A stretch of 64,000 bases of DNA. Source: Malacoraja senta. Taxonomy: Eukaryota. The stretch covers positions 10,046,001 through 10,110,000 of the forward strand of contig CM075988.1 in the NCBI GenBank assembly GCA_038087875.1. Direction: 5' to 3'. The notes below the pieces were generated by a model, which saw only the letters and a list, made by a program, of their open reading frames with translations, was not told the origin of the DNA and searched no databases. Shown here piece by piece: positions 14,348 through 63,405 of the stretch. The position numbers and the translations under genes were made by a program. Numbering within the stretch: position 1 is the stretch's first letter; every line of letters starts with the position of its first letter.

Positions 14348-16809
14348 TCAAGGCAAGTCAAGTCAAGAGAGTTTATTGTCATGTGTCCCAGAGAACAATG
14401 AAATTCTTGCTTGCTGCATCACAACAGAGTATTGTAAGCATACATAGAGAACAGTTCAGTGTGTCTCTGTAGCATAGACCATATATACACACATAAATAA
14501 ACAGATAAAGTGCAATAGGCTGTTATAGTCAGAGTTTGTTTGATGGCGAGTTTAATAGCCTGATGGCTGTGGGGAAGTAGCTGTTCCTGAACCTGGATGT
14601 GCCAGATTTCAGTCTCCTGTACCTTCTACCCGATGGCAGCAGAGAGATGAGTGTGTGGCCAGGATGGTGTGGGTCCTTGATGAAGTGGGCAGCCTTTTTG
14701 TGGCAGTGACTGCGATAGATTGCTTCGATGGTGGGGAGGTCAGAGCCGATGATGGACTGGGCAGTGGTCACAACTTTCTGCATTCTTTTCCGCTCCTGGA
14801 AGCTCAAGTTGCCGAACCAAGCCACGATGCAACATGTCAGTATGCTCTCTACTGTGCACCTGTAGAAGTTCGAGAGAGTCCTCTTTGACATACCGACTCT
14901 CCGTAATCTTCTCAGGAAGTAGAGGCGCTGATGTGCTTTCTTTATAATTGAATCAGTGTGTTGGGACCAGGAAAGATCTTCGGAAATATGCATGCCCAGG
15001 AATTTGATGTTTTTGACCCTTTCCACCATCATCCCGTTGATATAAACGGGATTGTGGGTCCCTATCCTACCCCTTTCAAAGTCCACAATCAGTTCCTTGG
15101 TATTGCTGGTGTTGAGAGCCAGGTTATTGTGCTGGCACCATTTGGTCAATCGGTCGATCTCACTTCTATACTCTAACTCGTCACCATCAGTGATTCGTCC
15201 CACAACAGTGGTGTATCAGCAAACTTGATGATGGAGTTCGCACTATGTCCAGCTACACAGTCATGGTTATAGAGTACAGCAGGGGGCTGAGCACGCAGCC
15301 TTGAGGTGCTCCCGTGCTGATTGTTATTGAGGATGACACATTTCCACCAATACGGACAGACTGTGGTCTGTGGATGAGGAAGTCGAGGATCCAATTGCAG
15401 AGGGATGCACAGAGACCCAGATCTGAGAGCTTGGTAACCAGTTTGGAGGGGATGATGGTGTTAAACGCTGAGCTGTAGTCAATGAATAACAGCCTGACAT
15501 ATGAGTTTCTGTAGTCCAAGTGGTCTAGAGCAGAGTGGAGAGCCAGTGAGATCGCATCCACCGTTGATCTGTTGTGGCGGTAAGCAAACTGCAGTGGGTC
15601 CAGTTTCTTATCGAGGTTGGAGCCATAATCAACCTCTCAAAGCACTTCATCACCACAGACATTAGTGCCACTAGTCGATAGACATTGAGGCACGTCACCT
15701 TGCTCTTCTTGGGCATCGGTATTATTGATGCCCTTTTAAAGCAGGTGGCAACCTCAGATCTCAGAAGTGAGAGGTTGAAATTGTCCGTAAAAACTCCAGC
15801 CATTTCGTCCGCACAGGTTTTTAGAACACGACCGGGTATGCCATCCTGTTCAGATTCTTTCCGAGGGTCCACCCCCCTGAAGGATCTTCTGACGTCGTCC
15901 TCTGTGACTGTGACTGAAATACCATCACGGCGAATGGGAGCTCGGGAAGGCAAATCAGTGTTCTCCCTATCAAAGCGTGCGTAAAACGCATTGAGCTCGT
16001 CAGGGAGTGATGCTTCGCTGAAAATTGAGCTGCCTCCTGATTTCGCCTTGTAGGAGGTGATGGCATTCAAGCCCTGCCACAGTTGCCGAACATCCGTCTC
16101 ATCCTCCAGCTTGGAGCAGAAGTCCCTTTTGGCCTTTTTGATGGCCTTCCCAAGGTCGTATCTGGAATTCTTGTAGACCTCTGCATCTCCAAACCTGAAT
16201 GCCCGGGATCTGGACTTCAGAAGAATGCGGATCTCATGGTTCATCCAAGGCTTCTGGTTAGGAAACACTTTTGTTGGGACGCAGTCCTCCACACATTTCT
16301 ATATGAAGTCTGTAACGACAGTGGCATATTCATTCAGGTCCATTGCCGAGTCCCTGACCATTGCCCAGTCTACAGACTCCTGGAGTTGTTCCTCTACCCC
16401 ACACCCCCCCCTCCCCCGACCAGCTCTGTACAGTCCTCACCTCTGGGGGTGCGCTCTTCAATTGCTGCCTGTAGGCAGGAAGCAGCAGCACCGCAGTATA
16501 GTCGGATTTACCGAATTGAGGGCGAGGGATAGAGCGATAGGCGTCTTTGAATGTCGTGTAGCAGTGGCCGAGGGTGTTTGATCCTCTGGTGCTGCAGGAG
16601 ACATGTTGGTGGAAGTTAGGGAGCGATTTTTTCAGGTTGGCTTTGTTGAAGTCCCCGGCTATGGTGGTAAACGCCTCGGGGTAAGCTGTCTGGTGCTTGT
16701 TGACCACGGCATGCAGCTCCCCCAGTGCCAGATGGACCTCAGCCTGGGGTGGGATGTCGACCGCGGTCAGGATGATGGAGGTGAATTCCCTTGGTAGGTA
16801 GAAGGGATT
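14348..16809 (-). mobile_element. Rex1/Babar non-LTR retrotransposon, 5'-truncated and frameshifted (APE endonuclease C-terminal half, RT, C-terminal domain)
   Basis: Consecutive minus-strand ORFs: FYLPREFTSIILTAVDIPP...GDFNKANL...TLGHCYT (APE); [65 protein letters not shown]. (CTTGA)n 3' tail, and CAACTTG repeated at 14341-14347 and 16810-16816 (TSD). Confidence 0.92.
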
Positions 16810-16844
16810 CAACTTGGAAGTAGACCCTTCGACCCACTTGGTCA

Positions 16845-17115
16845 ACAACAATCATCAATCGCCAGTTCACATAAGTTCCATGTTATTCCACTTTCTCATC
16901 CACTCTCTACACACTAGGGGCAATTTAAAGAGGCCAAATAACCTACAAAGCTGCACATCTTTGGGATGTGAGAGGAAACCGGGGCACCTGGTTGAAACCC
17001 ACGTGTTCGCAGGGAGAACATGCAAATTCCACACAGACAACATCTGAGATTGTGATTGAACCCAGGACTCTGGCGCTGTGGGTCAGCAGGTCTGTCAGCT
17101 GCACCACTGCACCAA
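16845..17115 (-). mobile_element. V-SINE (HE1-like)
   Basis: V-domain and tRNA-like head on the minus strand. Confidence 0.7.
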
Positions 17116-18297: not shown

Positions 18298-19465
18298 ATG
18301 TATAAAATCATGAGAGGAATGGATCGGGTAGATGCACAGAATCTCTTGCCCAGAGTAGGGGAATCGAAGACCAGAGAACATAGATTTAAGGTGAAGGGGA
18401 AAAGATTTAATAGGAATCCGAGGGGTAACCTTTTCACACAAAGGGTGGTGGGTGTATGGAACAAGCTGCCAGACGAGGTAGTTGAGGCTGGGACTATTCC
18501 AATGTTTAAGAAATAGTTAGACAGGTACATAATAATAATAATAATAATAAGTTTATTTATATAGCACATTTTCCAATCGATTTAACTCAAAAGCCAAAGT
18601 GCTTTACAGTTACTAACCAAACAAATAATAAAAAGAGATAGAAAAAATGACAACACACTATAAGAAATTTTACACAAACACGAACATCCCCCCACAGTAG
18701 AATCTACACTCTCCACTGTGAGGGAAGGCACTAAAATGTCCAGTCCTCCTCCTCCTCCTAGTCCACCCGAGGTCGGGGCCAGTCTGAGGCCACTGCAGCC
18801 AGTCGCCGCAACGGCAGCCCGCTGTTGTTTGCCCACCCGCATCGGGTGGAAAAGTCCTCAGCAGCTTGGAAATGTCTGGAGCGGCCGCTCCTTCCCCGGA
18901 GACTGCGACGCCCGCGGACTTCAGGCCGCGCCGGTTGGAGCTTCGACTCCGCGGTGTTTTTGATCCAGCGCCGCCCGCCCGTGGCGGGATGCCCTCAAAC
19001 CGCAGACCGCAGACCACGGCTGCTCGATGTTGGTGGTCGGCGGTCACAGCACTCCGGAGCGGCGACCCGACAAGGCATCGCCCGCTCCCTGCTGATGTCC
19101 CAGCGCTGTGCCGCCGAAGCTGTGGTCCCCGGCAGGAAACGCCGCTCCAGCCCGATGGAAGGCCGCATGGGGAGACCGGAGACGCGATTCGGAGGAAAAC
19201 CGCATCTCCGACCAGGTAGGACTGGGGTTAAACAGTTCCCCCCCCCCACATAGAAAGAATAGACTCCAAATAATAAAAAAATAAAAAATATTCAAACAAT
19301 AAAAGAGTTAGACGACAGACTGCAGGCAGGCTGCCATACAAACGGCGCCCACTCCTGCACATCCGCCATCTTGAATTTTGGATAGTTATGAGGGATATGG
19401 ACCAAACACAGGCAGGTTGGACTAGTGGAGCTGGGGCATGTTGGCCAGTGTATCACTCTATGACT
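18298..19465 (+). mobile_element. CR1 LINE 3' end, interrupted by the element at 18531-19379
   Basis: Translates MYKIMRGMDRVDAQNLLPRVGESKTREHRFKVKG...FTQRVVGVWNKLP. The UTR breaks at GGTACAT (18530) and resumes at GGATAG (19380). Confidence 0.85.
18531..19379 (-). mobile_element. GC-rich non-autonomous retroelement with L2-like tail (family copy B)
   Basis: 5' CAAGATGGCG. Shares CCTACCTGGTCGG...CGTTTCCTG and GTGCCTTCCCTCACAGTGG blocks with copy A. Tail TGTAAAGCACTTTGG...GTGCTATATAAATAAAC(TAT)n. Cleanly splits a CR1 UTR. Confidence 0.75.
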
Positions 19466-22690: not shown

Positions 22691-23799
22691 AAAAACGCAA
22701 AGTACTGGAGTAACTCAGTGGGTCAGGCAACATCTCTGAAAAACATGGATAAGTTTTGTTTTGGGTCAGAATCATTCTGCTGTCCGTAGAAGGGTTTGAC
22801 ATGAAACGTCGCCTATCAGTGTTCTGGAATACTGGAGTGACTCCATGGGTTATGCAGCTTCTGGAGAACAGGGATAGGTGGCATTTCAGGTTGGGACTCT
22901 TCTTCAGACAGATTGTGGGAAGGGGTGGGGGTGTAAGAAAGCTGGAAAAAAGGAGGGGCAGGAGAAAGTCTGGCAGGTAATGGGGATGGGGGGGAAGGGT
23001 TATAGGGAAGTGGTGGACAAAGTCTAGGGATTAAAAGACAGAAAGTGTGAGGCAAAAGGTGCTGTTCTTCCAATTTGCTCTGAGGTACTGTTCCTCCAAT
23101 TTGCGCTGGGCCTCACTCTAACAATGGAGGAAGCCCAGGACAAAAAGGTCATTATGAGAATGGGAAGATACGTTAAAATGGTTAGCAACAAAAATGTCCC
23201 AACCGCAGATTTCCTTGGGATACCTGTCCTCCTTGCATTGTGACCTTCCCAACCTTCATCGATCTATTTGTGTTGCTAAGCCTTCAGCTGCAAGAGCCAT
23301 CAACTCTGTGATTCCTTTCATGAACTATTCGGTCTCTATGCAGTACTCCTTAAAATTTACCTTTGCAACCACACTTTTCATTGACTTTTCCAGTGACTCT
23401 TCGTAGCTGAAATTACAGATATTGTTCGATAAAGCTCCTGTGGTGCACTTTGAAACATTCTAAATGGGAAGGAAATACAGAAGAGTTACCAAAGAGTATA
23501 TCAGATTCATTGGAAAGTGACCCAGAGGGGAGCTGAGGAGAACCTCTTGGAGTGATCTGAAACACATTGATATAAGGCAGATTCAGCTGTATCTTTTAAA
23601 TGGAAATTACGAAAGGCGGAAAAAAGTGGTGAATGAGCACAGAAATTGTCCTAATTTGATACAGGAGCAAAGGTACTCCAGAAATTAGAATAGAAAGCAG
23701 AGAACCCTAGAAATATTCATCGCGTCAGGTAGGGCCAATATAGACACACTGTTCAAACCATTGGTTTAATACAATATGTTCTGATCTAATCCAATTCAG

Positions 23800-27049: not shown

Positions 27050-27050
27050 G

Positions 27051-27557
27051 AAGAGTTTGAAAAAAAATGACATGTTGAAGATCTCCTTCGACTATGTAGA
27101 AGACCTCCTTCGACCTCCTTCGACTATGTTGAAGACCAGCTTTGACTAGCTTCAACTAACTTGTGACTAACCGAATAGTGAAGAGTGAAGACGACCTCCT
27201 TCGATCTCCTTCGATCGCCCTTCGACTATGATGAAGACTATCTACGACTACCTTCGACTACCCTCGATTACCTACGACTAACATGCCGACCTACTACGAC
27301 CTACTATGACTAAACCTACAAGTAAAAAAAGTATCCATTTTTTCCATGGCGACCTGTTTTTACTCGCGGGCATTTTTTAACATATTGAAAAAAAACGCTG
27401 CGACCTAGCTGAGGCCTCAAGTACGCGGAAACCACTCTCGAGCATGAAGGAGAGTTACGAAGACCTCCTACTACCTCGTGTCGACCATGCTGCGAGTCTG
27501 AGTCGAGGGCAAACTCGCCAGAACTCGCGGAATAGGTCGCCCAAGTGGGGCAGGCCC
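27051..27557. mobile_element. One-ended Harbinger-type MITE with internal CTACGA/CTTCGA tandem repeats
   Basis: Ends CCAAGTGGGGCAGGCCC followed by TAA, matching the right TIR of the MITE at 31833-32404. The left TIR is absent. Confidence 0.7.
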
Positions 27558-29149
27558 TAAAAATTCTAAAAACTGTATTCAAAGGAATGTAATAGTCAGT
27601 CTTGGCATCATGTTCAGCATATTGTGTGCTGAAAGACCTGTTCTTATGCTGTACTGTTCTAAATTATATGTTCTATGTAATATTGGAGCTGAGTTGTAGA
27701 TTTTATCACTGGGATGTGATGAGGAACAAGTACCTTACTGCGTGTAGCTGATTAACAGGCGGTATTGTGCTTTAATTTGTTGGCAAAGGTTCCACTTGCA
27801 AAGGGCATGTGATCATGCCACTATAAAGAAGGTGACACTGTTGTGTGCTGCGGGCTACCATTTGGACTCACCTGTGTTTATATCAAAGTGAGCTGGCACC
27901 TTAGTTGCAAGCTGTTTCTTTTAGATCCTCTTTGCAGCTTCTCATTCACCACATTCCCTTCTTTATTTCAGCAGGGAAGATACCTAAGCTGCCTCTATGG
28001 AAACCAGCATTTGGTCACTAACCATTTCCTTTAGCTGCCTCAGGAACCTTGATGCAAAGCAATTAATTTCCGTCTAAGCATATCACTCAAGATAGGAGAA
28101 GGAAACATTTTCTCTGGGCAATATGTATTATTAATATTCTAAATATCAGTGCTATTTTCTTGCAGAAATCTGCACAGGTTACTGCATTAATAAAATAGAT
28201 CTTCCCATTAATTATGACAGAATGGATTTTGCAGTGAAGATTGTACATGTTTGCATGACCTATATCTCTTGACCCTTCTATGGATTTTTCTGCAACTACA
28301 ACGGCAATTAGCTTTCGTCAAGAAGTTGTCATTTTGCTTGTCTGATCTCTGGCAGGGGTGCTGTTGGAGGCAGATATGATAGTGGTGTTTAAGAGGGTTT
28401 TAGGTAGGCACATGGAGATACAGGGAATGGAAGGACATGGATCATGTGCAGGCAGATGAGGTTAATTTATCTCGGCTTCATGTTCGGCACAGGCATTGTG
28501 GGCTGAAGGGCCTGTTCCTGTGTTGTTCTGTTCTATGTTCTATCTATTTTTACTAACGATTTGGTTATCTGCCTTTTTATTTCCATGTGGCTCAATAAGT
28601 TGTTTTATGATACAAAATATTCCCTTTAAATGCATTTTGTAGTTGTAGAAAATCTCAATATTTGCTCATCGGAGATTGGCAGATTCTGGATCAGTACGGG
28701 TGGCAGGGGTTATGGGGAGAAGGCAGGGTGATGGGGTTGAGAAGGAAAGATTGAATGGCAGAGTAGACGATGGGCCACAAACTGTATAACTTATGAACTT
28801 ATCTTTACTTAAAATGGCATACGTTATGGGTCTATTAAGTATTGTTCATATTGGTTGCTAAACTTGCTACTTGTAGATAACAATTGAGATCCTTGAAGCA
28901 GGGGGAGACATTTTGTTGATGGCACTTCTGGAATTTTAAGCATCGCCCATTTTTTATCCATAGCAGCCCAAGGACACAAAATGGAATTCGAGGTACAACA
29001 TTCCTAACAGGAAATGTATAGGATGCCAATCTGTTTTGGGCATTTGACGCATCGACATCAGACATAATGAGCAGAACTATCTTGACATGAATCAGTAAAT
29101 ACCATTGATTTGAAGACACGATGGTCAGTCCCAGAGTCAACCCCAGATA

Positions 29150-29445: not shown

Positions 29446-30909
29446 TTTGTCATCAGAACTGAATCTGAATGTGGGTTGAAGTGAGACCTTGCAGAACCGG
29501 ACATGCTGGAGGAGGTAGGAGGAGGAGACGGAGGGGAGCAGAGCTCTCAACATGAAGGTTAATTACCGAGATGTTTTTGGAGCAATTTTTTTTCTGCAAC
29601 TACAATGTTCATGAGTTGGCTTCAGTTCAATAAAAGAGGTTGTTTATGAAACGGACCAAATACAGCATCAAGCTGGTTTTGCTTGTGGTTGTCAGGTTAA
29701 CCATCATCCTTAATTATTTTAAGCCTCTGGCACTGTTCAGACCACTGGTGGAGACACAAGCAGCATCTCTCAGTTAATAGCGCAGAGCCATATGAACGAG
29801 ATCCCTGCGGCCTCGCATATCTCATTCCTTCTTGCAGAGACCAACAGATGGAGTAAGATTGAGCATTTAGTTGAATTGCAGACTTCCCCACTGGTGCAGA
29901 ATGGTGAAGTGTTGCTTGCACCTGATTGAACTTGGCCTTGCTGCTCAACAGATGTGCACTCCAGTGCCTCTGGAGTACTGCCTCGCCATGCAGGAGAGGT
30001 TCTGATAACCTGCCAGAAGTCACAATTCCTTCATTCTGTAGCAAGCCTCTTTCATAGTTGTATTTATGTGGCAATTGAAGGGATTAAACTGGTTGTGAGA
30101 GGTTTTACTTGAATAATATAACTCATTAGTATGGTGTCAAGTAATGGGGAGAAGGCAGGGGAATGGGGTTGAGAAGGAAAGATAGATCAGCCATGATTGA
30201 ATGGCGGGTACACTTGATGGGCCGAATGGCCTAATTTTGCTCCTATGACCTATTACCACCAGCCTCACAGCAGTGCAAGTACCCGGTAGATTTACAATGA
30301 GAGCAACGTAAAACTATTCGAGGATCTCAGAGAGTCAGGCAGCATCTGTGGAGAGAAATGGATACATTATGTTGTATCTGCAGGCTCCTGCGTCTCCACA
30401 ATGCAAATAGTTCCACAAATGCTCCCATTGTAGGAGCACTTCACAGTGAAGGCTGGCACAGTGGCATTTTTGGTAGAGCTGCTCTCTCACAGACCAAGAG
30501 ACACGGGTTCAATCCTGACCTCCGGTGTTGTCGGGATGCAGTTTGCCCATTCTCCCAGAGTGGGTTTCCTCCGGGTGTTTAGGTTTGTCAGTTAATTGAC
30601 CTCTGTAAAATGCCCCTAGCGTGTAGGGAGTGAATGGGAAAGTGAGATCATATATTATGAGATGATATAGGGCGGCGCAGTGGCGCAGCAGTCGAGTTGC
30701 TGTCATGCAGCGGCGGAGACACGGGTTCAACCCTGACCACAGGTGCTGTCTGTACAGACTTTGTACGTTCTCGCTGTGACCGCATGGGTTTTCTCCGGAT
30801 GTTCCTTTTCACTCCCATACTCCAATGACTTACAGGTTTGTAGGGATCAGGGTAAGTGGAGATATGACTCTCTACATCAACATCTATATATCATTTCCCT
30901 TATCCCTAA

Positions 30910-31229
30910 AAGCCCTGTCCCACGGTACGAGTTCATTCCAGCAGCTCTCCCGAGTTTAAAAAAAATCAAACTCATGGTAAGCATGGAGAATGAACGTAGC
31001 GGGTACGTCGGAGCTCGGGGAGGTCTCTTAGCGCTAACGGCAGGTACTCGGGAACACTCGCTAACGGCAGGTAAGCACTGGAAGACTCGTGAAGATTTTT
31101 CAACATGATGAAAAATGTCCACGAGAGCCCCGAGTACCGACGAGTGGCCATTACCGTAAATCTCCGAGTTCGAATCAGGGCAAACTCGGGAGAACTCTTG
31201 GAATTAACACGTACCGTGGGACGGGGCTT
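30910..31229. mobile_element. PIF/Harbinger-type MITE
   Basis: TIRs AAGCCCTGTCCCACGGTACG / CGTACCGTGGGACGGGGCTT, with TAA duplicated at 30907-30909 and 31230-31232. Splits a Penelope-like tail (CCTTATCCCTAA^CCAGTCTGAAGAAGGG). Confidence 0.85.
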
Positions 31230-31237
31230 TAACCAGT

Positions 31238-31265
31238 CTGAAGAAGGGTCTCGACCTGAAACGTC
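31238..31265 (+). ncRNA. Minimal hammerhead ribozyme motif
   Basis: CTGAAGA-AGGGTCTCGACCT-GAAA-CGTC. Confidence 0.65.
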
Positions 31266-31832
31266 ACCCGTTCCCTCTCTTCAGAGCTGCTACTTGTCCT
31301 GCTGAGTTACTCCAGCTTTTTGTGTCTATCTACAGCTTATCATATGGTCTGATTATTTATTTTGTGGATTAATGTAAAATCCATCACATTTGACTCTTGC
31401 TGTGAACAATTCCTTCTGTAGCACTTTCATTTAAAAGTTTGTTATCAAAAGTTAATTTATCGGCACCACCTGACAGCAGGGATATAACCATAACTTGTAT
31501 GTGTGGAGCACACAAAGATGCTTGCACTGTATCTGACCCTTTTAATGTCGGGTTTCTTTCAGTTAAAAGTGTTCTTGCTGTGGGCCTGGTTACACTGGGG
31601 AAATAAACAAAAACACCACCAAATGCAAACTGAAATTCAAAAGAAAATTAAACTGTTAAATAATACAGTACATGCAAATATTTGGTTGCCTCTAAGGCAT
31701 CAGAAAGCGAGTTGCAAAGGAAGGAATGCGATCAGCCTGGTAGTAGATAGCAGGTCTGCATAAAATGGAGGCACCCTGAGGTGGTGCCTCAACTATTGCA
31801 GCTGTGATTTCCAGGAAAACCTTTTCAAGTAA

Positions 31833-32404
31833 AGGGCCTGTCCCACTTGGCCGTCATTTAAGCGACAGGCCGGTAGTGACTGACGCGCGAGTCATCATGC
31901 GTCCGCACAGCCGTCTGGAGCATGTGACGTCATTTGAAGATAGGCACAAAATGCAGGAGTAACTCAGCAGGACCGGCAGGATCTCTGGAGAGAAGGAATG
32001 GATGATGTTTCGGGTCGAGACTCTTCTTCAGTCTGAAGAAGGGTCTCGACCCGAAACGTCACCCATTGCTTCTCTCCAGAGATGCTGCCGGTCCCGCTGA
32101 GTTACTCCAGCATTTTGTGTCTTTCTCCAATCGTCTTGGCCCCGCTCTGGGAGTAGGAGTGGGGGCGGAGCCGTGAGCCCCAGGCCGAGCTCGGCGATCG
32201 TTTGCCTGCTTCTGCTGCTGTTGGAGGTGAGACGTTGCGCCGCGCCAGGGTCTTGGGCCGTCAGTTACGCGACAGGCCGGTGGCGCGCGAAGATTTTGTG
32301 CAGGACAAAATCCACTCCTCCCGTCCCGCGCTACCCATGCCCTACCCACACGCTAGCAGGTCACGTAAATGGCGCGCAAATGATGGCCAAGTGGGACAGG
32401 CCCA
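31833..32404. mobile_element. PIF/Harbinger-type MITE carrying a central ~197-bp palindrome
   Basis: TIRs GGGCCTGTCCCACTTGGCCGTCATTT / AAATGATGGCCAAGTGGGACAGGCCC, with TAA at 31830-31832 and 32405-32407. Confidence 0.85.
32033..32060 (+). ncRNA. Minimal type-I-like hammerhead ribozyme motif (best copy in the window)
   Basis: CUGAAGA-A-GGGUC-UC-GACCC-GAAA-CGUC: conserved core, perfect stem II, palindromic ACGU stem III, and a GUC cleavage triplet ending at 32060. Confidence 0.7.
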
Positions 32405-32577
32405 TAACACTCCTCCCGATTCCCACCCGCTGTGACATTCCAGCTGCTGAAACAGCGCTCCTCCCTGTTTAACAGCACTTGGAAAAGTTAATGGAAGTAG
32501 CAAGGAGAGCAGGATCAATGTCCATTAAAGAAAGTGGTAGCAGCAGCAATAATCAGCGAACTAAGTCCTGAAGGACG

Positions 32578-33415
32578 TTCATAAGTTCTAGATGCAGAAT
32601 TAGGCCATTCGGCCCATCGTCTACTCCACCCTTCAATCATGGCTGATCTATCTTTCCCTCTCAAACCCATTCCCCAGTCTTCGCCACCTAACTCCCGACA
32701 CCCTCACTAATCAAGAGAGGATTCTCCCGACGCCGGAGCACCATCACCCGGCGAGAACGGCCTGAAACATCGGCCCCCGTAGCGCCGACTGCGGAGGCCT
32801 CAATAAGGCCGACTATGGGTGAACATGGGATGGGGACTGGACATTGTGCCTTCCCTCATAATGGGAACCATTGTGGGGGGTGTTTTTTATGTTTATTGTT
32901 AAATTCTTTAATGTTGAGTCTTATCTTTATCTGTGTGCTGCATGGTAAGACAAATGTCACTACACCAATTGGTGTACAAATAAATGTCCTTTATCCTTTA
33001 TCCTTTATCTGACAATCTCCACCTTAAAAATATCCATCGAAGGCTTCCACAGAGTTCCACAGATTCACAAACCTCTGAGTGAATAAATTCTTCCTCATCT
33101 CCTTTCTAAAGGTACATTCTGTTATTCTGAGGCTATGGCCATTGGTCCTAGACTCTCCCACTGGTGGAAACATCCTCTCCACTCTATCCAGGCCTTTCAT
33201 TATTTAGTAAGTTTCAATGAGGTACCCCCTCATCCTTCTAAACTCAGGCAAGTACAGGCCCAGTACCGTCAAATGCTCATCATATGTTAATCCAATCATT
33301 CCTGGGATCATTCGAAAACCTCCTCTAGATGCTCTCCAAATGCCAGGACATCCGTCCTTGGATATGGGGCCCAAAACAGCTCACAATACTCCAAATGCTG
33401 TCTGACCAGTGCTTT
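32578..33415 (-). mobile_element. CR1 LINE 3' fragment interrupted at 32717-33010
   Basis: Reverse CR1 UTR (TAGGCCATTCGGCCCATC...) and coding remnant (GGTCCTAGACTCTCCCACTGGTGGAAACATCC). Confidence 0.8.
32717..33010 (+). mobile_element. 5'-truncated GC-rich retroelement with Rex-type tail (family copy C)
   Basis: 32718-32880 aligns by eye to 17777-17940, then ends CACTACACCAATTGGTGTACAAATAAATGT(CCTTTAT)n. Confidence 0.75.
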
Positions 33416-34141
33416 ATCAACATTATCAGTGCCTCTGCATTACATCCCTTTGTTACATGACATTGATTCCAGTCTGAGCATAGTAAGTCCATCAAGACGT
33501 CTCATCTTCGCCAATTGCAAATGTCAGCAATGGTCAGCAATGTCAGCAACAAGCTCCACTGGGTCGTTCATACTGCCACTGTATTTGATGGTTCGGTCTC
33601 AGATTGGAGCTGGCAGCTCAAAACAAGACATCCATTAGGGGCTGCAAACAATCAGAGGAGACAGAAATACTACTCACCACAAAATAAAACTTCAGTAGAA
33701 AATTTAGATCATCCACTGTTCCCCGGCAAATAATAAAGTGTTAACAATACTGCCACAAAGAGAGTCACCTAATGAAGAAATGCTGTCTAACTTTGAGAGT
33801 GATTACAATAAGATAGCCCTTACACTATAATAGGGCAGGAACTGAATCCGATAACAGCAGTGAGATGGAAAGATATAATGACCCTCTGATGGTCATAATG
33901 TACAGCGATAAACATAAGAGTATTCTTCTGAGTATTTGCTCAGGTTTAAATTCTATATTTAGGTTTAAAGGATATTACTGACATCTGGTAAGGAAAATAG
34001 AATGAATATAGCTCTTTACTGTTTGCATTCATTCTGGGTCATTTTTTTCTTGCTGTTGTCTGCTACAAATAGATTGCTTCTTGTTATTCTCTGCATAGAC
34101 TTGTGCAGAACCATTTAACCTGATCAAGGGCCTGAAGAATG

Positions 34142-47564: not shown

Positions 47565-47972
47565 AATCCATTTTCCTACCATTTCAAGCAGGGTGCAAGG
47601 CCACCAAATCCAAGTGCAGTTTCTTAACACTTCGAGCAGGGTGCAAGGCTACCAAATTCAAGTGCAGTTTCCTACCTCTTCAAGCAGGGTGCAAGGCCAC
47701 CAAATCCAAGTGCAGTTTCCTACCACTTCGAGCAGGGTGCAAGGCCACCTAATTCAAGTGCAGTTTCATTCCACTTCAAGCAGGGTGCAAGGCCACCAAA
47801 TTCGTGCAGTTTCATACCATTTCAAGCAGGGTGCAAGGCCACCAAATTCAAATGCAGCTTCATACCATTTCATGCAGGGTGCAACACCACCACATTCAAA
47901 TGCAGTTTCATACCATTTCATGCAGGGTGCAAGGCGACCACATTCAAATGCAGTTTCATACCATTTCAAGCA
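47565..47972. repeat. 48-bp minisatellite, about 8.5 copies (one more unit at ~46720-46757)
   Basis: Unit approximately TTCAAGCAGGGTGCAAGGCCACCAAATTCAAGTGCAGTTTCCTACCAT, starting at 47583, 47631, 47679 and onward. Confidence 0.92.
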
Positions 47973-48830
47973 TGGTGAACCACCATAAAACCACCATAAA
48001 ACCACACAAAACACCAAACTCACAGTTCAGTAGACATTCAGTGTGTTCAGTTGATTCACAGCTCAGACAGTCGTGACCTCTCCCTCCCCCATCATGCAGA
48101 GACTGAGCCACACCCACACTTCCGGGTTTTATAACTTCTCCCCCTCCCACCGGAAAAGGTGTGGCCTTCACGGCATGATTGACAGGAGAGAGATTCTCAA
48201 AATTTTTAAACACTAATAACACTTTTCTTTTTCATTGATGGGAAGAACCCTCTGCACCTGTTGAGCGGATGGGGACTGAGTAAGATGGCCAAAAATCACA
48301 GCCATAAGTGGTAGCGTTTCATCTAAAATCAATATACAGTGCAAACAGGAAGTTACCCAAAGCACCCAAACCACCATTTGCAGTGGTGCCTTTTAACTTC
48401 AAGCCAAAGCACCCAAACCACCATTTGCAGGCAGTGCCTTTTTACTTCAAACCAACCAATTTTTCATTTTCAAACCACATTAAGGGGACTCACAGTTGAG
48501 TAGACATGTGTTCAGTGTTATTCAGAGCTCAGAGAGACATGACCCTCTGACTTCCTCCATCTTGCAGAGACTGAGTGAGGCACACCACTTCCTGGCTTTA
48601 TAGTCCCTCCCCCTCCCTCCAGCAGGGGCAGCAGAGAGAATGGTGAATTTTTAAAAAACATTAATATCTCTCTGATTTTTCATAGATGGGAGAAATGCTC
48701 TGGTCCAGGAAGGCGGGCGTGGGCTCTGAGCGAGGTGGCCAAAAATGACGGCCGTAGGTGGCGGCGTTCTCTCGGAAATCGCACCACAGTGGGCCAAAAG
48801 CGGTCAAGATCAGACGTTTAGTAATATAGA

Positions 48831-52090: not shown

Positions 52091-53091
52091 TTAAACAATA
52101 GCAACAGCACTCAATATTGAGTTGGCAAACAGCCCTCCATCGGCAATCGGCCGATGGTAGTATTGCTGAAACACAAGTTCATTTTTCCAACCTGCGGCTT
52201 TTAATATATGGTCGATGGGAACGTCCATCGCCCTGGCCGCGGATGTTGCTACTGCGCTAGTGGAATGAGATGTAAACACATAAATGTTAATTCCTGCCTG
52301 AACCAACTCTTGCTTTAACCACCTTGAGATAGTCTGAACTGCCACTCTTTTATGTTGGCTTCTTGTAACTGAGAAATAATCCTGTTTCTTCTTGTCTTAA
52401 AGCCCTTGCGGCTTCAATGTAATGTAACAAATGTGTCCTTACACATAAACATGGAGCTGTAGGATATGCTGAGATCACAATCTTAAGACCTGTCACACCT
52501 GGCCTGCTTTGTTTGAGCAGGACAGAAATACAAAACAGAACATTCTCTGTATTCACTTCCATTCTCTCGAACTGAAGTTTTTGGAAAGTCTGCACTCTCT
52601 GTACTGACACTAATGCCATTAGCATAGCCAATTTCATGATTAATTTTAACAAAGTTATAGACGTGACAGGGACCCAATGACGAAGTATGTTACAAACAAC
52701 ACTTACCTTGCAGATTACCATATACCTAGGCTTAGGCGGTTTGGAATTAAAGATTCCTTTCATCAACCTAGATATGAGAGGGTGAGAACCTATACTTTGT
52801 GTCCATGTACCTATTACAAGATATGCCGACCAAGCACTTCTAGCTGTATTGATAGCAGTATAGCTAAGACCATCATCATAATAAAGTGTAGATAAACTCT
52901 AACCCATTTTCAATAACTACAGTATCATATTGAATATTCTTTTGAACACAATATTGTTCCCATTTTTTTTTTTTTTTTTTTTCATAAGTCATATACTGTT
53001 TTTGAGTACTGTTTCTCCAGGCTGCAGTGAGTATATCCACCGTTGGCCTAGAAAGTCCTCGACCAATGTAAGGCATTCTTAAAACCTGCAA
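52091..53091 (-). pseudogene. DIRS tyrosine recombinase, frameshifted
   Basis: AWRNSTQKQY...W; MKGIFNSKPPKPRY; KLAMLMALVSVQRVQT; LLKQSRPG; CLCVRTHLLHY; TISRWLK...FTSHSTSAVATS...ILKAAGWKNELVFQQYYHRPI. The HxxR motif reads HSTS. Confidence 0.9.
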
Positions 53092-53189
53092 ATTAAAAGA
53101 TCCATACCATCACATAACGGATGAACTTAATGCGTTACTGGATGCTCCAGCAAATTCCTACTGTTTGGAATCAGCAAAAAGAGGTTGGA

Positions 53190-53400
53190 TCGCTATCTGT
53201 AACATCAAAGGAAACCATGGTTGAATCAGGCAATTTGGTATCACCAAAACCCCTGAAGCGGCATCCTGCTTGATTTTCTCAAACACCGACCTACGAGGCA
53301 GAATGGTGGGAAAATGTACACAAACATATCATCCCAATTTAGTGAAAAAGCATCAATTGTCACTGCCCCTGGATCTGGTGCCTATGAAACATATTTTGGC
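53190..53400 (-). pseudogene. DIRS DNA N6-adenine methyltransferase-like domain remnant
   Basis: Manual translation PKYVS*APDPGAVTIDAFSLNWDDMFVYIFPPFCLVGRCLRK / IKQDAASGVLVIPNCLIQPWFP, with the DAF..W and Y.FPPF motifs typical of DIRS MT. Confidence 0.85.
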
Positions 53401-53449
53401 CTTCCATATAGAAGTACTATGTTCTTGAACACATCCTGGTTCCACATCC

Positions 53450-54790
53450 ACTCTGTGTTATGATGGAATTTTCGTGAGCTGCCATCTGGTACTACATTAA
53501 GTTTCCGTGGCAGATAGATAGCTCCAATCCAAATCTCTCTATCTCTACTCCAGGTCCAATTGTATTTGCCAACCTGTCACATGATAACAATTTGATTCCA
53601 CCCATGTGATTCATATCAGCAACTGCTGTAGTGTTGTCTATTTTGCACTGCACATGCAAACTAGTTTAGTTAGTGCCATAAGCCTTGAGTCCATAAAATA
53701 CTCTTGGTTAATTCCCCATGTTTGCAGAAGCAATGTTCATCTGTCTCCACCGCTGGATCTTGTATCAGTAGCACCCTACCCAAGTGCTCTGACATCTGTC
53801 TGCAAATCATGGAAGCTTGGTCCAATAACACTTTGGAACTACTAGTGGACACATGCTGAATCCACCATTGTACATCAGCAACAGCCTCTATTGATAGAAG
53901 CATAGGTCTATTATAATGACCCCAATGTATCCTCAATGCTTGTTCCTTTGACCTTTGTAATTGTAGATAATAAAGTGTCCATATTGAACTGCTTGAAATG
54001 CTGCCAGCCATTACCACAGCAGGCTTGTCACCTGGCTAATTGAAGGCTGTGTGTTAGCAATTAGCTTGATATAGCTCTTAATTAGCTCTACCCATTTTTG
54101 CCTGGGCAAGGTCACAATGATGTTGATTAAGTCCATTGTGAACCCAACTAGTCAATTTGTGTCACAGGTATAAATTTAGATTTCTCAGAATAGCTTATAA
54201 AGCCCAATTAAAAATTGGTTTTTACCAACTGCCACTGATGCTTCAGCTGTTTCCTTTGATTGTCCTACAATCAAGATATTATCTAGCTAAGCCATGAGCA
54301 CATGACCTTGACTTCTCATCATGCCTAGCATAGGTTTTAACAACTTTGTAATCACTCTAGGAGCTGAAGACAAACCATTAGGCAGTGGATTGTATTGGCA
54401 TAATTGCCCCATCCAGCTGAATTTTAAATCTTCTATCCTGCAAATGAACAGACACTGAATCCGCATCTTTAAGATCTCCTTCACAAACGTTTCCATCTTA
54501 AAATGTCTATACCGTACAAAAGGGTTAAGACTATTCAGGTCTGTATAATTCTGCATCCCCCCATCCTTTTTTGGTCTGGGAAAAATATTGGACACAAACT
54601 GATGGCTTTGGTAAACTGCCTTAGCAATTACACCTTTATTACATAAGCTTGCAAGTTCCAGCTGAACTTCCAATTGTTCAGTGATACTGAAGTCAAACTC
54701 CTTTTTTGGAACATGTTGCATGGGTAAATCAGAATTTGCATTAAGCTTTATTTGATGCCCTTGAATAACCTTCAGTATAAACTGAGGTAA
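53450..54790 (-). pseudogene. DIRS reverse transcriptase / RNase H, multiple frameshifts and stops
   Basis: FVSNIFPRPKKDGG...DLNSLNPFVRYRHFKMET...QYNPLPNGLSSAPRVITKLLKPML...LMA*LDNILIVG (YLDD decayed), and DVQWWIQH. Confidence 0.88.
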
Positions 54791-54887
54791 ACATTTAATT
54801 GTATCACATTAGATCTGTCTACATGAGAACCAGACCCTCTTACCTCCTTACCACCTGGCATTCTTCCCCGGCCTTGAGCTGGATATC

Positions 54888-56060
54888 TCACCTCCGTGGC
54901 GGTGCTACAGCCGAACGCCAACTGCGCTGCATCGTAGCTGGACTAGTCCCTTGCCCGGACCAGTCTGCTCCCTTATAGGGATACTTCCGCTTTGGTGAAT
55001 ATGTGGCTGCCGTCTTAGCCTCCTCCTCCAGCTCCTTCACCAGCTGTGCGAAATCCTCGCCAAACAGCTGTGCCGGTTGCACTGTGCCAGGCTGGCAGAG
55101 TGAAGCATATTTAGCATTGATGGTTGGTCTAATGGCATCTTGCGGAGGCAGTTGATCTCAAAGTGGGCACTCCACAATAGCGCCTTTTGTTGTAATTTGT
55201 CATGGCCTCTCCATCCACCATCCTGGCAAAGCTCGTTATACCAGATGCCAGCAACTTTAAAAATATGCTGTAGCTTCACATGCTCCTGGGCTTTCATTAG
55301 TATGCCCATCTTGCCCCAATTCTTCCTGTTCCCAACAGGAACTTTAAACAGTCCACAGTTGATTGGGGCTTCATACTTCTTTACTGTCTCATCCATTGTC
55401 AGCTCCTGTAGCTGATGTGAGACTTGGTAATTTATGCTGGTGGCAAGTTCCTCACCCAGAGGCTCACCAGTGTCCGACGACATGGCAAACCGTGCTGCAC
55501 ACGGTGTCAGCTCTGACAGCTGCCTGCCCTCCCTTTGGAAGTCGTCGGACTCAGGGTCAGAGCGTATCTGCCCTTCTGCACTCACCTCTTGCAAAGAGGG
55601 TGCTTTCAAGCAGGCCTCTACTAGGCACTGCCAGCGGAGCCGTCCCCTCGGCCTCCCGCCTGCACAACTCCTCCTGGAGTATGGCTTTATGAAGCAGACC
55701 TCTCCTAGGCACTGCCAGCGGAGCCTTCCCTAAGGCTTCCCGCCTGCACCACTCCTCCTGGAGCGTCTCTGTGGAGCAGCCCCTGTATGAGCTGCTCCTT
55801 TTGGATAACCGCTGGGGAACGGTATCCTGTCCCCGACGGGACTCTCGTGGCCTGACTCTGCGGAGTGTATAGCCCTGACAGACTTGGCTTCTGCCGACCG
55901 CCCGACTGGCGTTGGCTGTGTACCCGGCTGGTCACTTTGCCAAGTCTGTCGCCGCACCGTTACCGGCTTGCGACTCCCCCGAGGTGACAGGCTGCCTTTC
56001 AGAGACTGCACTCCCGCAGCTCTCTCTCTCCTTGTCGGCAGCAGCCTGCACCTTTTCCTT
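54888..56060 (-). pseudogene. DIRS gag-like ORF1, broken
   Basis: Position between the left ITR and RT; KYEAPINCGLFKVP and QLFGEDFAQLVKELEEEAK. Contains an 84-bp internal tandem duplication (55613-55765). Confidence 0.65.
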
Positions 56061-56819
56061 GTTCCTGTATGTGGGGGGAAAACACACAGAAACAATATCT
56101 TTACTTTTCTCTAACTCCTCCAAAGTCTCCCCGACTTTGGTGGAGCTGTATTTACTCACGTTGCAGCAGGAGGTCCGTGCTCCTGCTGCCGTTCGCACCA
56201 ATGCGTCCGACGTAATGACACGCATGCGCCCTGACGGGGTTCTTCACGTAGTCACTCACGTGACTCCGAAGTAAAATTATATTTCACACGTATAAATGTG
56301 ACAAGTTACAACAAGCAGCAATTATCCACATTTGGTAATAAAATCAAACGTATGCTGGTGGCTCGGCTGCTGAAGATGCATAATTGACTAAATGAGTCAA
56401 CAACAGCAAACACCACAAATAGCCCATACTGTTAGATGGGGCTTGTTAAAGTGAAAGGCAGCCTATCAGTCGTATTAAAATCCAGCTACTAAACCTGACA
56501 GTTGTTAATGAAGCCCACAGTCCCAATCATAACATTGTTTTACTAAATGTGTTTTTTTGTGTGTAGATTGCTTCCAGTACATGGAAGCCAGCAATCTCAG
56601 AGACAGCTCTGTTGTTCTTCCATTGTTGTAGATCAACTCGACAACAACTGATTTATGATACCAGCAATGTGGTGCAATATTTTTAAAGACAAAACTGTAG
56701 GTTTGAATGACTAGAAATTAAAATATGACCCTCACAACAATAAGGCTAGAGTGTTACATGGAATTGAATTGCCTTTTGTTATGCATTGTGTACACCTGCT
56801 TCTGTTCTTTTGTTATATG

Positions 56820-61200: not shown

Positions 61201-61361
61201 CATTATTCATTGAAGGACCTGGCTCAAGATAGGCTATTCTCAAAGATACTGGCTGACCTCCAAAACTTCACCCACATTAACTTTAAAAGGAGTTTCAAAT
61301 TATGACAGCCAACTGGCTATTTAATATGAGTTGCATCTCATCCAACTTTTATTTCATTTAA

Positions 61362-63405
61362 GGTAGACACAAAAAAGCTGGAGTAACTCAGAGTTACAAG
61401 CAGCATCTCTGGATGGGTGACGTTTCAGGTCGGACCCTTCTTCAGACTAGTCAGGGAAAAGGGAAACGAGAGATATAGATTATGATGGAGAGAGATAAAG
61501 AACAATGAATGAAAAGTAACGATGATTAAAAAAAAACAGGCCATTGAAATTGAAATTGAATTGAAATTATTTTATTTGTCACATGTGCCAATTGGCACAG
61601 TGAAATGTGTGATTGCCATACAGCCATACAATCAAAAATAAGAACACAACACATGATAGAGTTCAACATAAAACATCCCCACACAGCAGAATCAAATTTT
61701 CCCACTGTGAGGGAAGGCACCAAAGTCAGTCGTCTTCCTCTAATGTTCCCCGCTGTTCACCCGTGGTCGGGGCCTCCCCGAGCGCACCGCAGTCGCCGCT
61801 ACGGGCGGTCCGATGTTCAGGCCCGCTCGCCGGGGTGATGTAAGTCCGATGTCAGGGCTGGGTGACCTCCTCAGCGGCTTGGGCATCAGAGTCGGCCACC
61901 TCCTACCGGAGTCCACAGCTCCCAAAGTCCGCAGGCTGCGCCGGGCAGAGATGCAGAGATGCAGCGCTGGCGGCCCTCGGCAAAGAGCCCCAGGACTCCG
62001 TGATGTCATTCAGCGCCGGAAGCTCTCCCAAACCGCAACTCCACGATGTTGGAGCTCTCCCAAACGCTGGAAGCTCTCCAAAACCGCAGCTCCACGAGCT
62101 CCAAACGGCGATCCAGGTCGGCATCGCCCGCTCCGCCCACTCCGCGGTGAATCCAGCGCCGCGCCGCCGCTGTTGCAGCTCTGGTCCAGTTCCCAGTCAC
62201 CGGCAGGAAAGGCCGCTCCGATCCAGGTGGTAGGCCGCGAGGAGGGGGGCGAGGACGCGACTTGGAGAAATAGTCGCGTCCCCGCCAGGAAGCGACTGGG
62301 AAACAGTTTCCCCCTTACCCTACCCCCCTCCCCCACATAGAAAAGTTAAAGTTTCCCCCCAAAACAAACATTAAGCTAACTAAAAATTAAAAAAAGTTGG
62401 AAAAAACGAACAGGCTGCAGGCAGAGGCTGCCCTCAGTGTAGCGCCCCCTGTTGCTGACTTTGATGTTTGTTGGGTGAAAACTAGAAGTTGGTGTGACTT
62501 GGGTGGGGGAGGGATAGAGAGAGAAGGAATGCCGGGATTACTTGAAGTTAGAGAAATCAAAATCATACCACTGGGCTGTAAGCTGCCCAAGCAAAATATG
62601 AGATGCTGCTCCTCCAATTTGCATTTAGCCTCACTCTGACAATGGAGGAGACAGGACAAAAAGGTCAATGTGTGAATGGGAAAGAGATTTGAAGTATTTA
62701 GCAACCTGGAAATCAGGAAGGTTCAGGCGGAATGAGCAGAGGTGTTCAGTGAAACTATCGCCCAGTAGTCTCGCCGGTGTATAAGAGTCCACATCTTGAA
62801 GATGATGCAACTAAACTTCTGCCATAACCTGAAAGGACAGTCGGGGCCCTGGACAGTCGAGCTAGGAGATATAGGGGCACATGTTGCATCTTCTGCGGTT
62901 GCAAGGGAAGGTTCCTGGGGAGGGAGGGGTTGCGTGAGAAGGAATGAGTTAACCAGGGAGTTGCAGAGGGAACGGTCCCTGTGGAAGGAGGAAAGGAGTG
63001 GTGATGGGAAGATGTGACTAGTGTTGGGATCCTGTTGGAGGTGGCAAAAATGTTGGAGGATTATGTGGTGTAAGCAATGGCTGATGGGGTGAAAGGTAAG
63101 GACTAGGAGGGACTTGCCTCTGTTGAGAATAGGGAGAGGGGGAGCAAGGGGTGAGCAAGGGGGGAGCTGCGGGGTACCGAGGAGACATGAGTGAGGGGTT
63201 CATCTATGATGGGAGAAGGGAACCCCCAGTTCCCTAAAGACTTAGGACTTCTCGGATGTCCTAGTGTGGAACACATCATCTTGGGCGTAGATGCGGCGCC
63301 GACAGAAACATTTGGAGAAGGGGATAAAGTCTTTTCAGGAAGCAGGTTGGGAAGAAGTGTAGTCGAGATGGTTGTGGGAGTCAGTGGGTTTGTAAAAGAC
63401 GTCTA
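61362..63405 (-). mobile_element. Penelope-like element, 5'-truncated (RT thumb, GIY-YIG, 3' tail with hammerhead), interrupted at 61546-62450
   Basis: VFYKPTDSHNHLDYTSS; LLHCQSEAKCKLEEQHLIFCLGSLQPSGM; downstream same-strand CTGAAGAAGGGTCCGACCTGAAACGTC at 61419-61445. Confidence 0.85.
61546..62450 (-). mobile_element. GC-rich non-autonomous retroelement with Rex-type tail (family copy D)
   Basis: Shares GCGGCCTACCA...GGAGCGGCCTTTCCTGCCGG and GTGCCTTCCCTCACAGTGGG blocks. Tail TTTCACTGTGCCAATTGGCACATGTGACAAATAAA(TTCAA)n. Splits the Penelope tail at GGCCATT^GTTGCTG. Confidence 0.75.

Follow-up and report, generated by a model that had tools for sequence, protein, structure and literature searches.

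The 572-nt element at positions 31833 to 32404 of the window (the whole 64-kb stretch of DNA that was analyzed) is probably a composite non-autonomous DNA transposon: a pair of Penelope-like retroelement ends likely landed once in an ancestral, Harbinger-like MITE and has since likely been amplified along with it, as passive cargo, the hammerhead motif in the pair being predicted to be silent.

A Harbinger-like MITE frames the element

The outer frame consists of two terminal inverted repeats (TIRs), at 31833 to 31859 (plus strand) and 32378 to 32404 (minus strand), of which the paired stretches, 31834 to 31859 and 32378 to 32403, are identical at 25 of 26 positions; the outermost bases, 31833 and 32404, are both A and are therefore unpaired with each other. 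When the non-palindromic parts were shuffled 1,000 times, an exact inverted match of 19 nt was never obtained, and one of 14 nt was obtained once. Immediately outside the TIRs lies a TAA target site duplication (31830 to 31832 on the left, 32405 to 32407 on the right). Inside them, a left internal part (31860 to 31935), with ATTT at its junction with the central palindrome, and a right internal part (32129 to 32377), beginning with AAT, yielded nothing but stops or unrecognized frames upon six-frame translation of the MITE. A subterminal 26-nt motif (31849 to 31874, plus strand), repeated in direct orientation and with 92% identity at 32256 to 32281, is possibly a binding site for a transposase partner.

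Reads from 4 of 24 listed sequencing runs (X1, X2, X3, and X10), representing three organisms, were mapped at 80% likeness. In all four, the summed depth, which does not equal copy number, rises by about four orders of magnitude at the left TIR (in X1, from approximately 40 to more than 500,000) and returns to low values at the right TIR. Over most of the right internal part, it amounts to 10^4 to 10^6 in X1, X3, and X10 and is about tenfold lower in X2, the shallower run. Contig 9 of X10 aligns from position 31829, including the TAA, behind a 56-nt flank of its own, while the alignments of X10 contigs 15 and 16 end at the right TIR, past which these contigs run on for 181 and 146 other letters, respectively. 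Given these depth steps and contigs with their own flanks, the MITE is a dispersed family with exactly these ends. The first-pass annotation, which had proposed a Harbinger-type MITE with 26-bp TIRs and a TAA duplication, is supported as to the frame: the TIR length, the 3-bp TAA/TTA duplication, and the short, noncoding, dispersed, and high-copy nature of a family with fixed ends are those of PIF/Harbinger (Tourist-like) MITEs, and non-autonomous PIF/Harbinger elements have TIRs of about 14 to 50 bp (PMC3014272, PMC9179366). An autonomous Harbinger partner (a DDE transposase plus a Myb-like protein) was not recognized among the open reading frames of the window, which were inspected by eye and 5 of 56 of which were scanned against Pfam.

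The window contains further elements of this kind. A sister MITE (30910 to 31229), with TIRs of about 48 bp, the same terminal motif, and a TAA duplication, is itself nested in a Penelope end (30907 to 31334), with an intact hammerhead core a few bases downstream of the MITE, so that the nesting is the reverse of that described here. A related element end was found at 27557 (element at about 27050 to 27560); a matching left TIR was not found for it, and its interior has motifs in common with the sister MITE as well as short repeated units. The observed/expected CpG ratio is 0.9 to 1.2 in the MITE parts (31833 to 31935, 32129 to 32404, and 30909 to 31230), compared to 0.44 in the window and 0.62 in the palindrome. 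In a skate or ray host, the TIR/TAA elements at 30910 to 32404 would point to Harbinger-type activity in cartilaginous fish; Harbinger elements were reported to be absent from the elephant shark, in a study that called for other species to be checked (PMC9179366).

Both arms are Penelope-like pLTR ends

The interior of the MITE is occupied by a palindrome with arms at 31934 to 32031 and 32033 to 32130, which are 90% complementary. Over the 98 mirrored positions, there are 88 Watson-Crick pairs, 3 G-U pairs, and 7 mismatches, with a longest unbroken paired run of 29, and the fold has a z score of -19.7. An earlier description as a near-perfect palindrome of about 197 bp was correct in placing the center at 32032, but "near-perfect" is generous for 88 Watson-Crick pairs out of 98. 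Alignment with other copies places the outer limits of the retroelement-derived sequence at about 31936 and 32128, the two outermost pairs having come from the target site.

Both arms derive from a Penelope-like pLTR, of which they represent the 3' end. A profile of 16 copies in the window matched the minus arm (31936 to 32031) with an nhmmer E value of 4e-29, this copy being included in the profile, and alignment with other copies gave the same assignment; the plus arm (32033 to 32128) was assigned by comparison with other copies and the profile. In total, the profile search returned 33 matches in 64 kb, or about 1 per 2 kb, including tandem neighbors and five divergent neighbor pairs, and both tandem and strand-switch joints were also seen in read contigs. 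Some copies in the window carry an extension of approximately 35 nt, which is absent from both arms and which also forms the majority of loose ends in all four runs. In the anole element, an optional Penelope tail marks two reverse transcription start sites (PMC11167929). Since the extension corresponds to this optional tail and is missing from both arms, these are tail-less pLTR ends.

Remnants of coding sequence are compatible with this assignment. Two decayed frames (23189 to 23082 and 62799 to 62564) lie on the same strand as, and upstream of, copies of the arm, the second across an unrelated insert of about 900 bp. Both match a relative, P0003 (E values of 5e-8 and 2e-9, respectively), a protein with a GIY-YIG motif, whose Pfam GIY-YIG score of 20 bits is below the curated cutoff of 22.6 bits. 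A frame on the reverse transcriptase side (62726 to 63199) had no Pfam, Atlas, or homologue match, and one retroelement frame in the window showed a 55% match to a stretch of a thorny-skate protein model; such repeats occur in skates, and the host probably belongs to the skates or rays. Together, the copy alignment, the optional tail, and the GIY-YIG-like remnants bear out the earlier identification of the arms as two divergent Penelope-like tails, here tail-less pLTR ends with a minimal hammerhead motif.

Other retroelement-like remnants are present as well. At 61360 to 63400, a Penelope-like coding remnant has its 3' region split by the GC-rich insert of about 900 bp, relatives of which are found at 18683 to 19243 and 32742 to 32984. 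Several long, decayed minus-strand frames occupy 52350 to 56110 (two were scanned against Pfam, without a match), which we take to resemble a DIRS-like retroelement with reverse transcriptase and recombinase-like pieces. A broken LINE-like coding region is located on the minus strand at 14529 to 16851, with one frame matching Pfam PF09004, and repeated-peptide frames at 47566 to 47988 suggest a tandem array.

At the center of the palindrome, immediately 5' of the hammerhead, lies the micropalindrome TCAG-T-CTGA of the retroelement (32028 to 32036), which is also present in solo copies at 1255, 25170, and 45802 and is likely the fold-back point. Both arms share one minority base (31974/32090), with the other letter accounting for 88 to 93% of mapped depth, as expected if both arms were copied from one template. 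We rejected the possibility of an assembly artifact, because the arms differ at 10 of 98 positions and the flank-to-TIR junctions showed no differences in X1 (both junctions) and X2 (left junction).

Head-to-head pairs also occur outside the MITE

The emphasis placed earlier on the back-to-back arrangement was overstated, since such pairs are not peculiar to the MITE: among the 32 contigs listed, 16 bridge the same center with at least 31 letters on each side, the threshold used for bridging throughout, and 7 of these 16 (6 loci) continue for at least 100 letters that are unlike the MITE. Within the window, a divergent pair at 22783 has the same center and no TIR nearby; its decay is advanced, with 16 of 43 mirror pairs left. 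Next to this decayed palindrome (region 22692 to 23189) lies another arm, together with its 3' region and an endonuclease remnant. As same-center pairs recur and several run into non-MITE DNA, the head-to-head palindrome is an ordinary insertion product of Penelope-like elements. Such products have precedents, in that inverted 5' copies are typical of Penelope-like elements (PMC8557442), palindromes at inverted junctions have been interpreted as the outcome of self-priming (PMC3846280), and in Schistosoma, hammerhead pairs occur on opposite strands, 100 to 700 bp apart (PMC4209133).

The history that we propose would accordingly start from this very common retroelement, which leaves pLTR ends of about 100 bp, often head to head at one center. 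The pairs may form at integration, through self-priming on the TCAG-N-CTGA micropalindrome of the element, and one such pair would then have inserted at an ATTT/AAT site of a MITE of about 380 bp. The protein of the anole Penelope element preferentially cleaves at ATT, on both strands (PMC11167929), and the letters found here at the left (ATTT) and right (AAT) junctions match that preference; by analogy, the same preference may have applied at these MITE junctions.

A MITE subfamily likely carries the palindrome

Whether the palindrome belongs to the MITE family, as had been suggested, depends on the two junctions. On the left, contigs 10 and 11 of X10, a run from another organism, bridge from the MITE into the minus arm (74/57 and 31/101 letters on either side, respectively), and the same junction is crossed more shortly by X10 contig 9 (107/24) and X2 contig 18 (98/15). 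The three X10 contigs overlap and differ from each other and must therefore represent at least two loci, and X2 contig 18, with 19 differences compared to none in the X2 contig of this locus, is another copy. Furthermore, a joint that skips the palindrome, as an "empty" MITE would produce, was not among the 15 listed of at least 1,415 joints (with a listed support of 1 to 42 contigs per run), whereas position 31922, 13 letters from the left junction, has its majority base supported by 96 to 124 contigs per run. On the right, the junction was bridged by 0 of the 32 contigs listed. Depth in X1 stays high there, at 782,000 (position 32127), 487,000 (position 32132), and about 766,000 (the bin that follows); the alignments of generic arms, by comparison, are clipped between 32122 and 32126. 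The alignment of X3 contig 32 begins at 32134, and the 16 letters before it, toward the junction, are unaligned, so that this contig may be a copy without the arm. It should be kept in mind that the listed contigs are the longest collinear pieces, a choice that favors filled copies. Because the left junction is present in contigs from two organisms and no empty joint is among the 15 listed, we consider it quite likely that a filled MITE subfamily exists with which the palindrome travels, the right junction being supported indirectly. The suggested membership is thus likely correct as far as the left junction is concerned, but lacks a bridging contig among the 32 listed on the right.

Searches for copies elsewhere added little. 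A pattern scan of the genome contig and viral contig collections returned no matches, and a metagenome match (L001) was dismissed as a chance match in bacterial-looking coding DNA. Predicted-protein searches with the frame that crosses the right junction gave one and eight matches; the six that were aligned back cover the arm only, and the two remaining matches are to long proteins, with 27 to 32% identity.

An alternative explanation is that the MITE family is mostly empty and that a few filled copies were hit independently, at an AT-rich hot spot in an otherwise GC-rich element. With arms present at about 1 per 2 kb (33 matches in 64 kb) and with ATT, at which the anole protein prefers to cut, on each strand at the junction, independent hits are conceivable; moreover, the right junction is unbridged among the listed contigs (with the unaligned letters of X3 contig 32 located there), and the sister MITE at 30910 to 31229 demonstrates that nesting can also occur the other way around. 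On the other hand, four contigs from two organisms share the same side, the same orientation, and the same arm end, and depth is continuous across both junctions. In addition, an empty junction at high copy number should out-rank the listed joints, with their 1 to 42 contigs per run, but it is absent from the 15 shown. We therefore regard repeated independent insertion as unlikely and prefer a single landing in an ancestral MITE, after which the filled element came to occupy several loci in at least two organisms, presumably moved in trans by a Harbinger-type transposase.

A variant of this scenario, in which the transposase moves the filled MITE but the Penelope reverse transcriptase also copies the palindrome, together with part of the MITE, from the outer arm end to give 5'-truncated retrocopies, strikes us as decidedly improbable. 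In its favor, the arms end where insertions commonly do, at the tail-less start site, unrelated DNA can be mobilized in trans by pLTRs (PMC3846280), and the X10 depth climbs toward the left junction (13,000 at 31883, 24,000 at 31890, 122,000 at 31902, and 365,000 at 31922), as 5' truncation would produce. However, the right side has no such gradient, clipped alignments in a stretch that is diverged and rich in CpG give the same pattern, a hairpin of -168 kcal/mol would have to serve as the template, and copies with intact TIR ends and their own flanks exist. Equally doubtful, in our view, is a more elaborate version, according to which a multispecies Harbinger-type MITE with the Penelope reverse transcription start region in both orientations would be a hybrid of the two classes, moved by transposase, seeding retrocopies, and yielding a double-stranded RNA of about 95 bp against the ribozyme region of the abundant retroelement, as a mobile silencing cassette.

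The hammerhead motif is predicted to be silent

The plus arm contains an intact minimal type I hammerhead core (32033 to 32060), with the scissile site expected after C32060, as judged by a check against the published description (PMC4209133): CUGAAGA, an extra A, a 4-bp helix II, GAAA, a palindromic ACGU, and C17 at 32060. The check, applied in a fixed register and covering the conserved core and helix II, was passed by 3 of 21 copies, including this one, which confirms the first-pass call of an intact plus-arm core. Helix I has two contiguous pairs, followed by two mismatches; it has 4 to 5 bp in most metazoan minimal hammerheads and 2 bp in Drosophila virilis (PMC4209133). The core in the minus arm (32004 to 32031) is more than "slightly mutated," as it had been called, with three defects: helix II contains a mismatch, ACAU replaces ACGU (which breaks the helix III palindrome), and the first helix I pair is absent. 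Since the center is a single unpaired base, only one arm can have the U with which helix I starts. A search of 31000 to 33500 against Rfam returned no hammerhead model match (two chance matches only), so the ribozyme call rests on the published description of minimal hammerheads.

The earlier proposal that transcripts would be subject to competition between self-cleavage and hairpin formation is not supported by the predictions. Each strand carries one monomer within the element, the next plus-strand copy being located 795 bp upstream, outside the MITE, and in both directions of transcription the antisense precedes the sense core. The 216-nt palindrome region is predicted to fold at -168 kcal/mol, and in folds of the whole 572-nt element, the pairing probability of helix II was about 1e-19 to 1e-20 on both strands. 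Constraining the core to be open made the predicted fold about 43 kcal/mol worse, and the hairpin was dominant at all six nascent transcript lengths tested. Even in the isolated arm, the predicted pairing probability of helix II was at most 0.19. These energies take no account of help from protein, which the anole hammerhead needs: its cleavage required the protein of the element, and it was dispensable for insertion in vitro (PMC11167929). Metazoan minimal hammerheads showed no activity as monomers and little as dimers (PMC4209133). With a single monomer per strand, antisense transcribed first, a helix II probability of about 1e-19, a cost of 43 kcal/mol, and inactive monomers, no competition between folds is predicted, and the long hairpin is predicted to trap the hammerhead motif and keep it silent. 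Read-through RNA from either strand would form a hairpin of about 95 bp that hides the single ribozyme monomer. That transcripts are split between a self-cleaving hammerhead and the long hairpin, so that the MITE spreads working ribozymes, is hardly credible, for although the plus core is intact and the related anole hammerhead cleaves once the element's protein is added (PMC11167929), the 2-pair helix I and the three defects in the minus core come on top of the fold predictions and of the poor activity of minimal hammerheads (PMC4209133).

Significance and comparison with known systems

On present evidence, we are dealing with a curious composite element that adds no new ribozyme function. 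Should the palindrome prove to be fixed in a subfamily of the MITE, it would be a clear case of a class II element spreading a ribozyme motif. Hammerhead censuses would then call for caution, many of their matches being silent cargo, and the capture, which would have preceded the divergence of two or more of the sampled organisms, would serve as a dated marker. Independently, the many same-center palindromes represent a countable footprint of an unresolved step in Penelope integration. In the literature searched, which included work on sharks and skates but not most subscription papers, Dfam, or Repbase, a hammerhead-bearing palindrome in a MITE was not found; the supplements to PMC4209133 list further hammerhead families, which may include the present one.

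A DNA transposon with a piece of retroelement is not new, as the non-autonomous hAT elements hobo-N1 to hobo-N6 of the green anole were already described as carrying a Penelope fragment (520 bp) inherited as cargo (PMC3014272). The element described here differs from these in its Harbinger-like frame with TAA duplications and in its cargo, two short ends placed head to head as a palindrome that includes a hammerhead motif; the available text of PMC3014272 mentions neither a ribozyme nor a palindrome in the hobo-N elements. Similarly, in MER6, a Mariner-type MITE, a retroelement piece specifying structured RNA (the V domain of a SINE) was amplified by a DNA transposon burst, but both the superfamily and the cargo are different, the cargo of MER6 being neither a ribozyme nor a palindrome (PMC6887750).

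The palindrome itself resembles the inverted-pLTR products of endonuclease-positive Penelope elements, which are likewise head to head, with a junction palindrome, an optional tail of 30 to 40 bp, and 5' truncation; here, in contrast, both arms are about 95 bp, and instead of being a dead end, the pair seems to have been propagated by a DNA transposon (PMC3846280, PMC8557442). With metazoan minimal type I hammerheads, the motif has in common CUGANGA, an extra base before helix II, G10.1-C11.1, a palindromic 15.2-16.2, and the lack of a helix III (PMC4209133, PMC11167929). As a putative ribozyme, it is distinguished from them by a helix II of 4 bp, a helix I of 2 bp, and an overlap of the two motifs at one center, which places sense and antisense on each strand. 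Finally, non-LTR retrozymes are also noncoding, pLTR-derived, hammerhead-bearing repeats (10.64898/2026.07.22.740005). We rejected that identity, since the pair is inverted and one core is damaged: retrozymes consist of tandem, head-to-tail units, which allow dimeric cleavage, whereas the element described here is an inverted pair enclosed by TIRs (10.64898/2026.07.22.740005).
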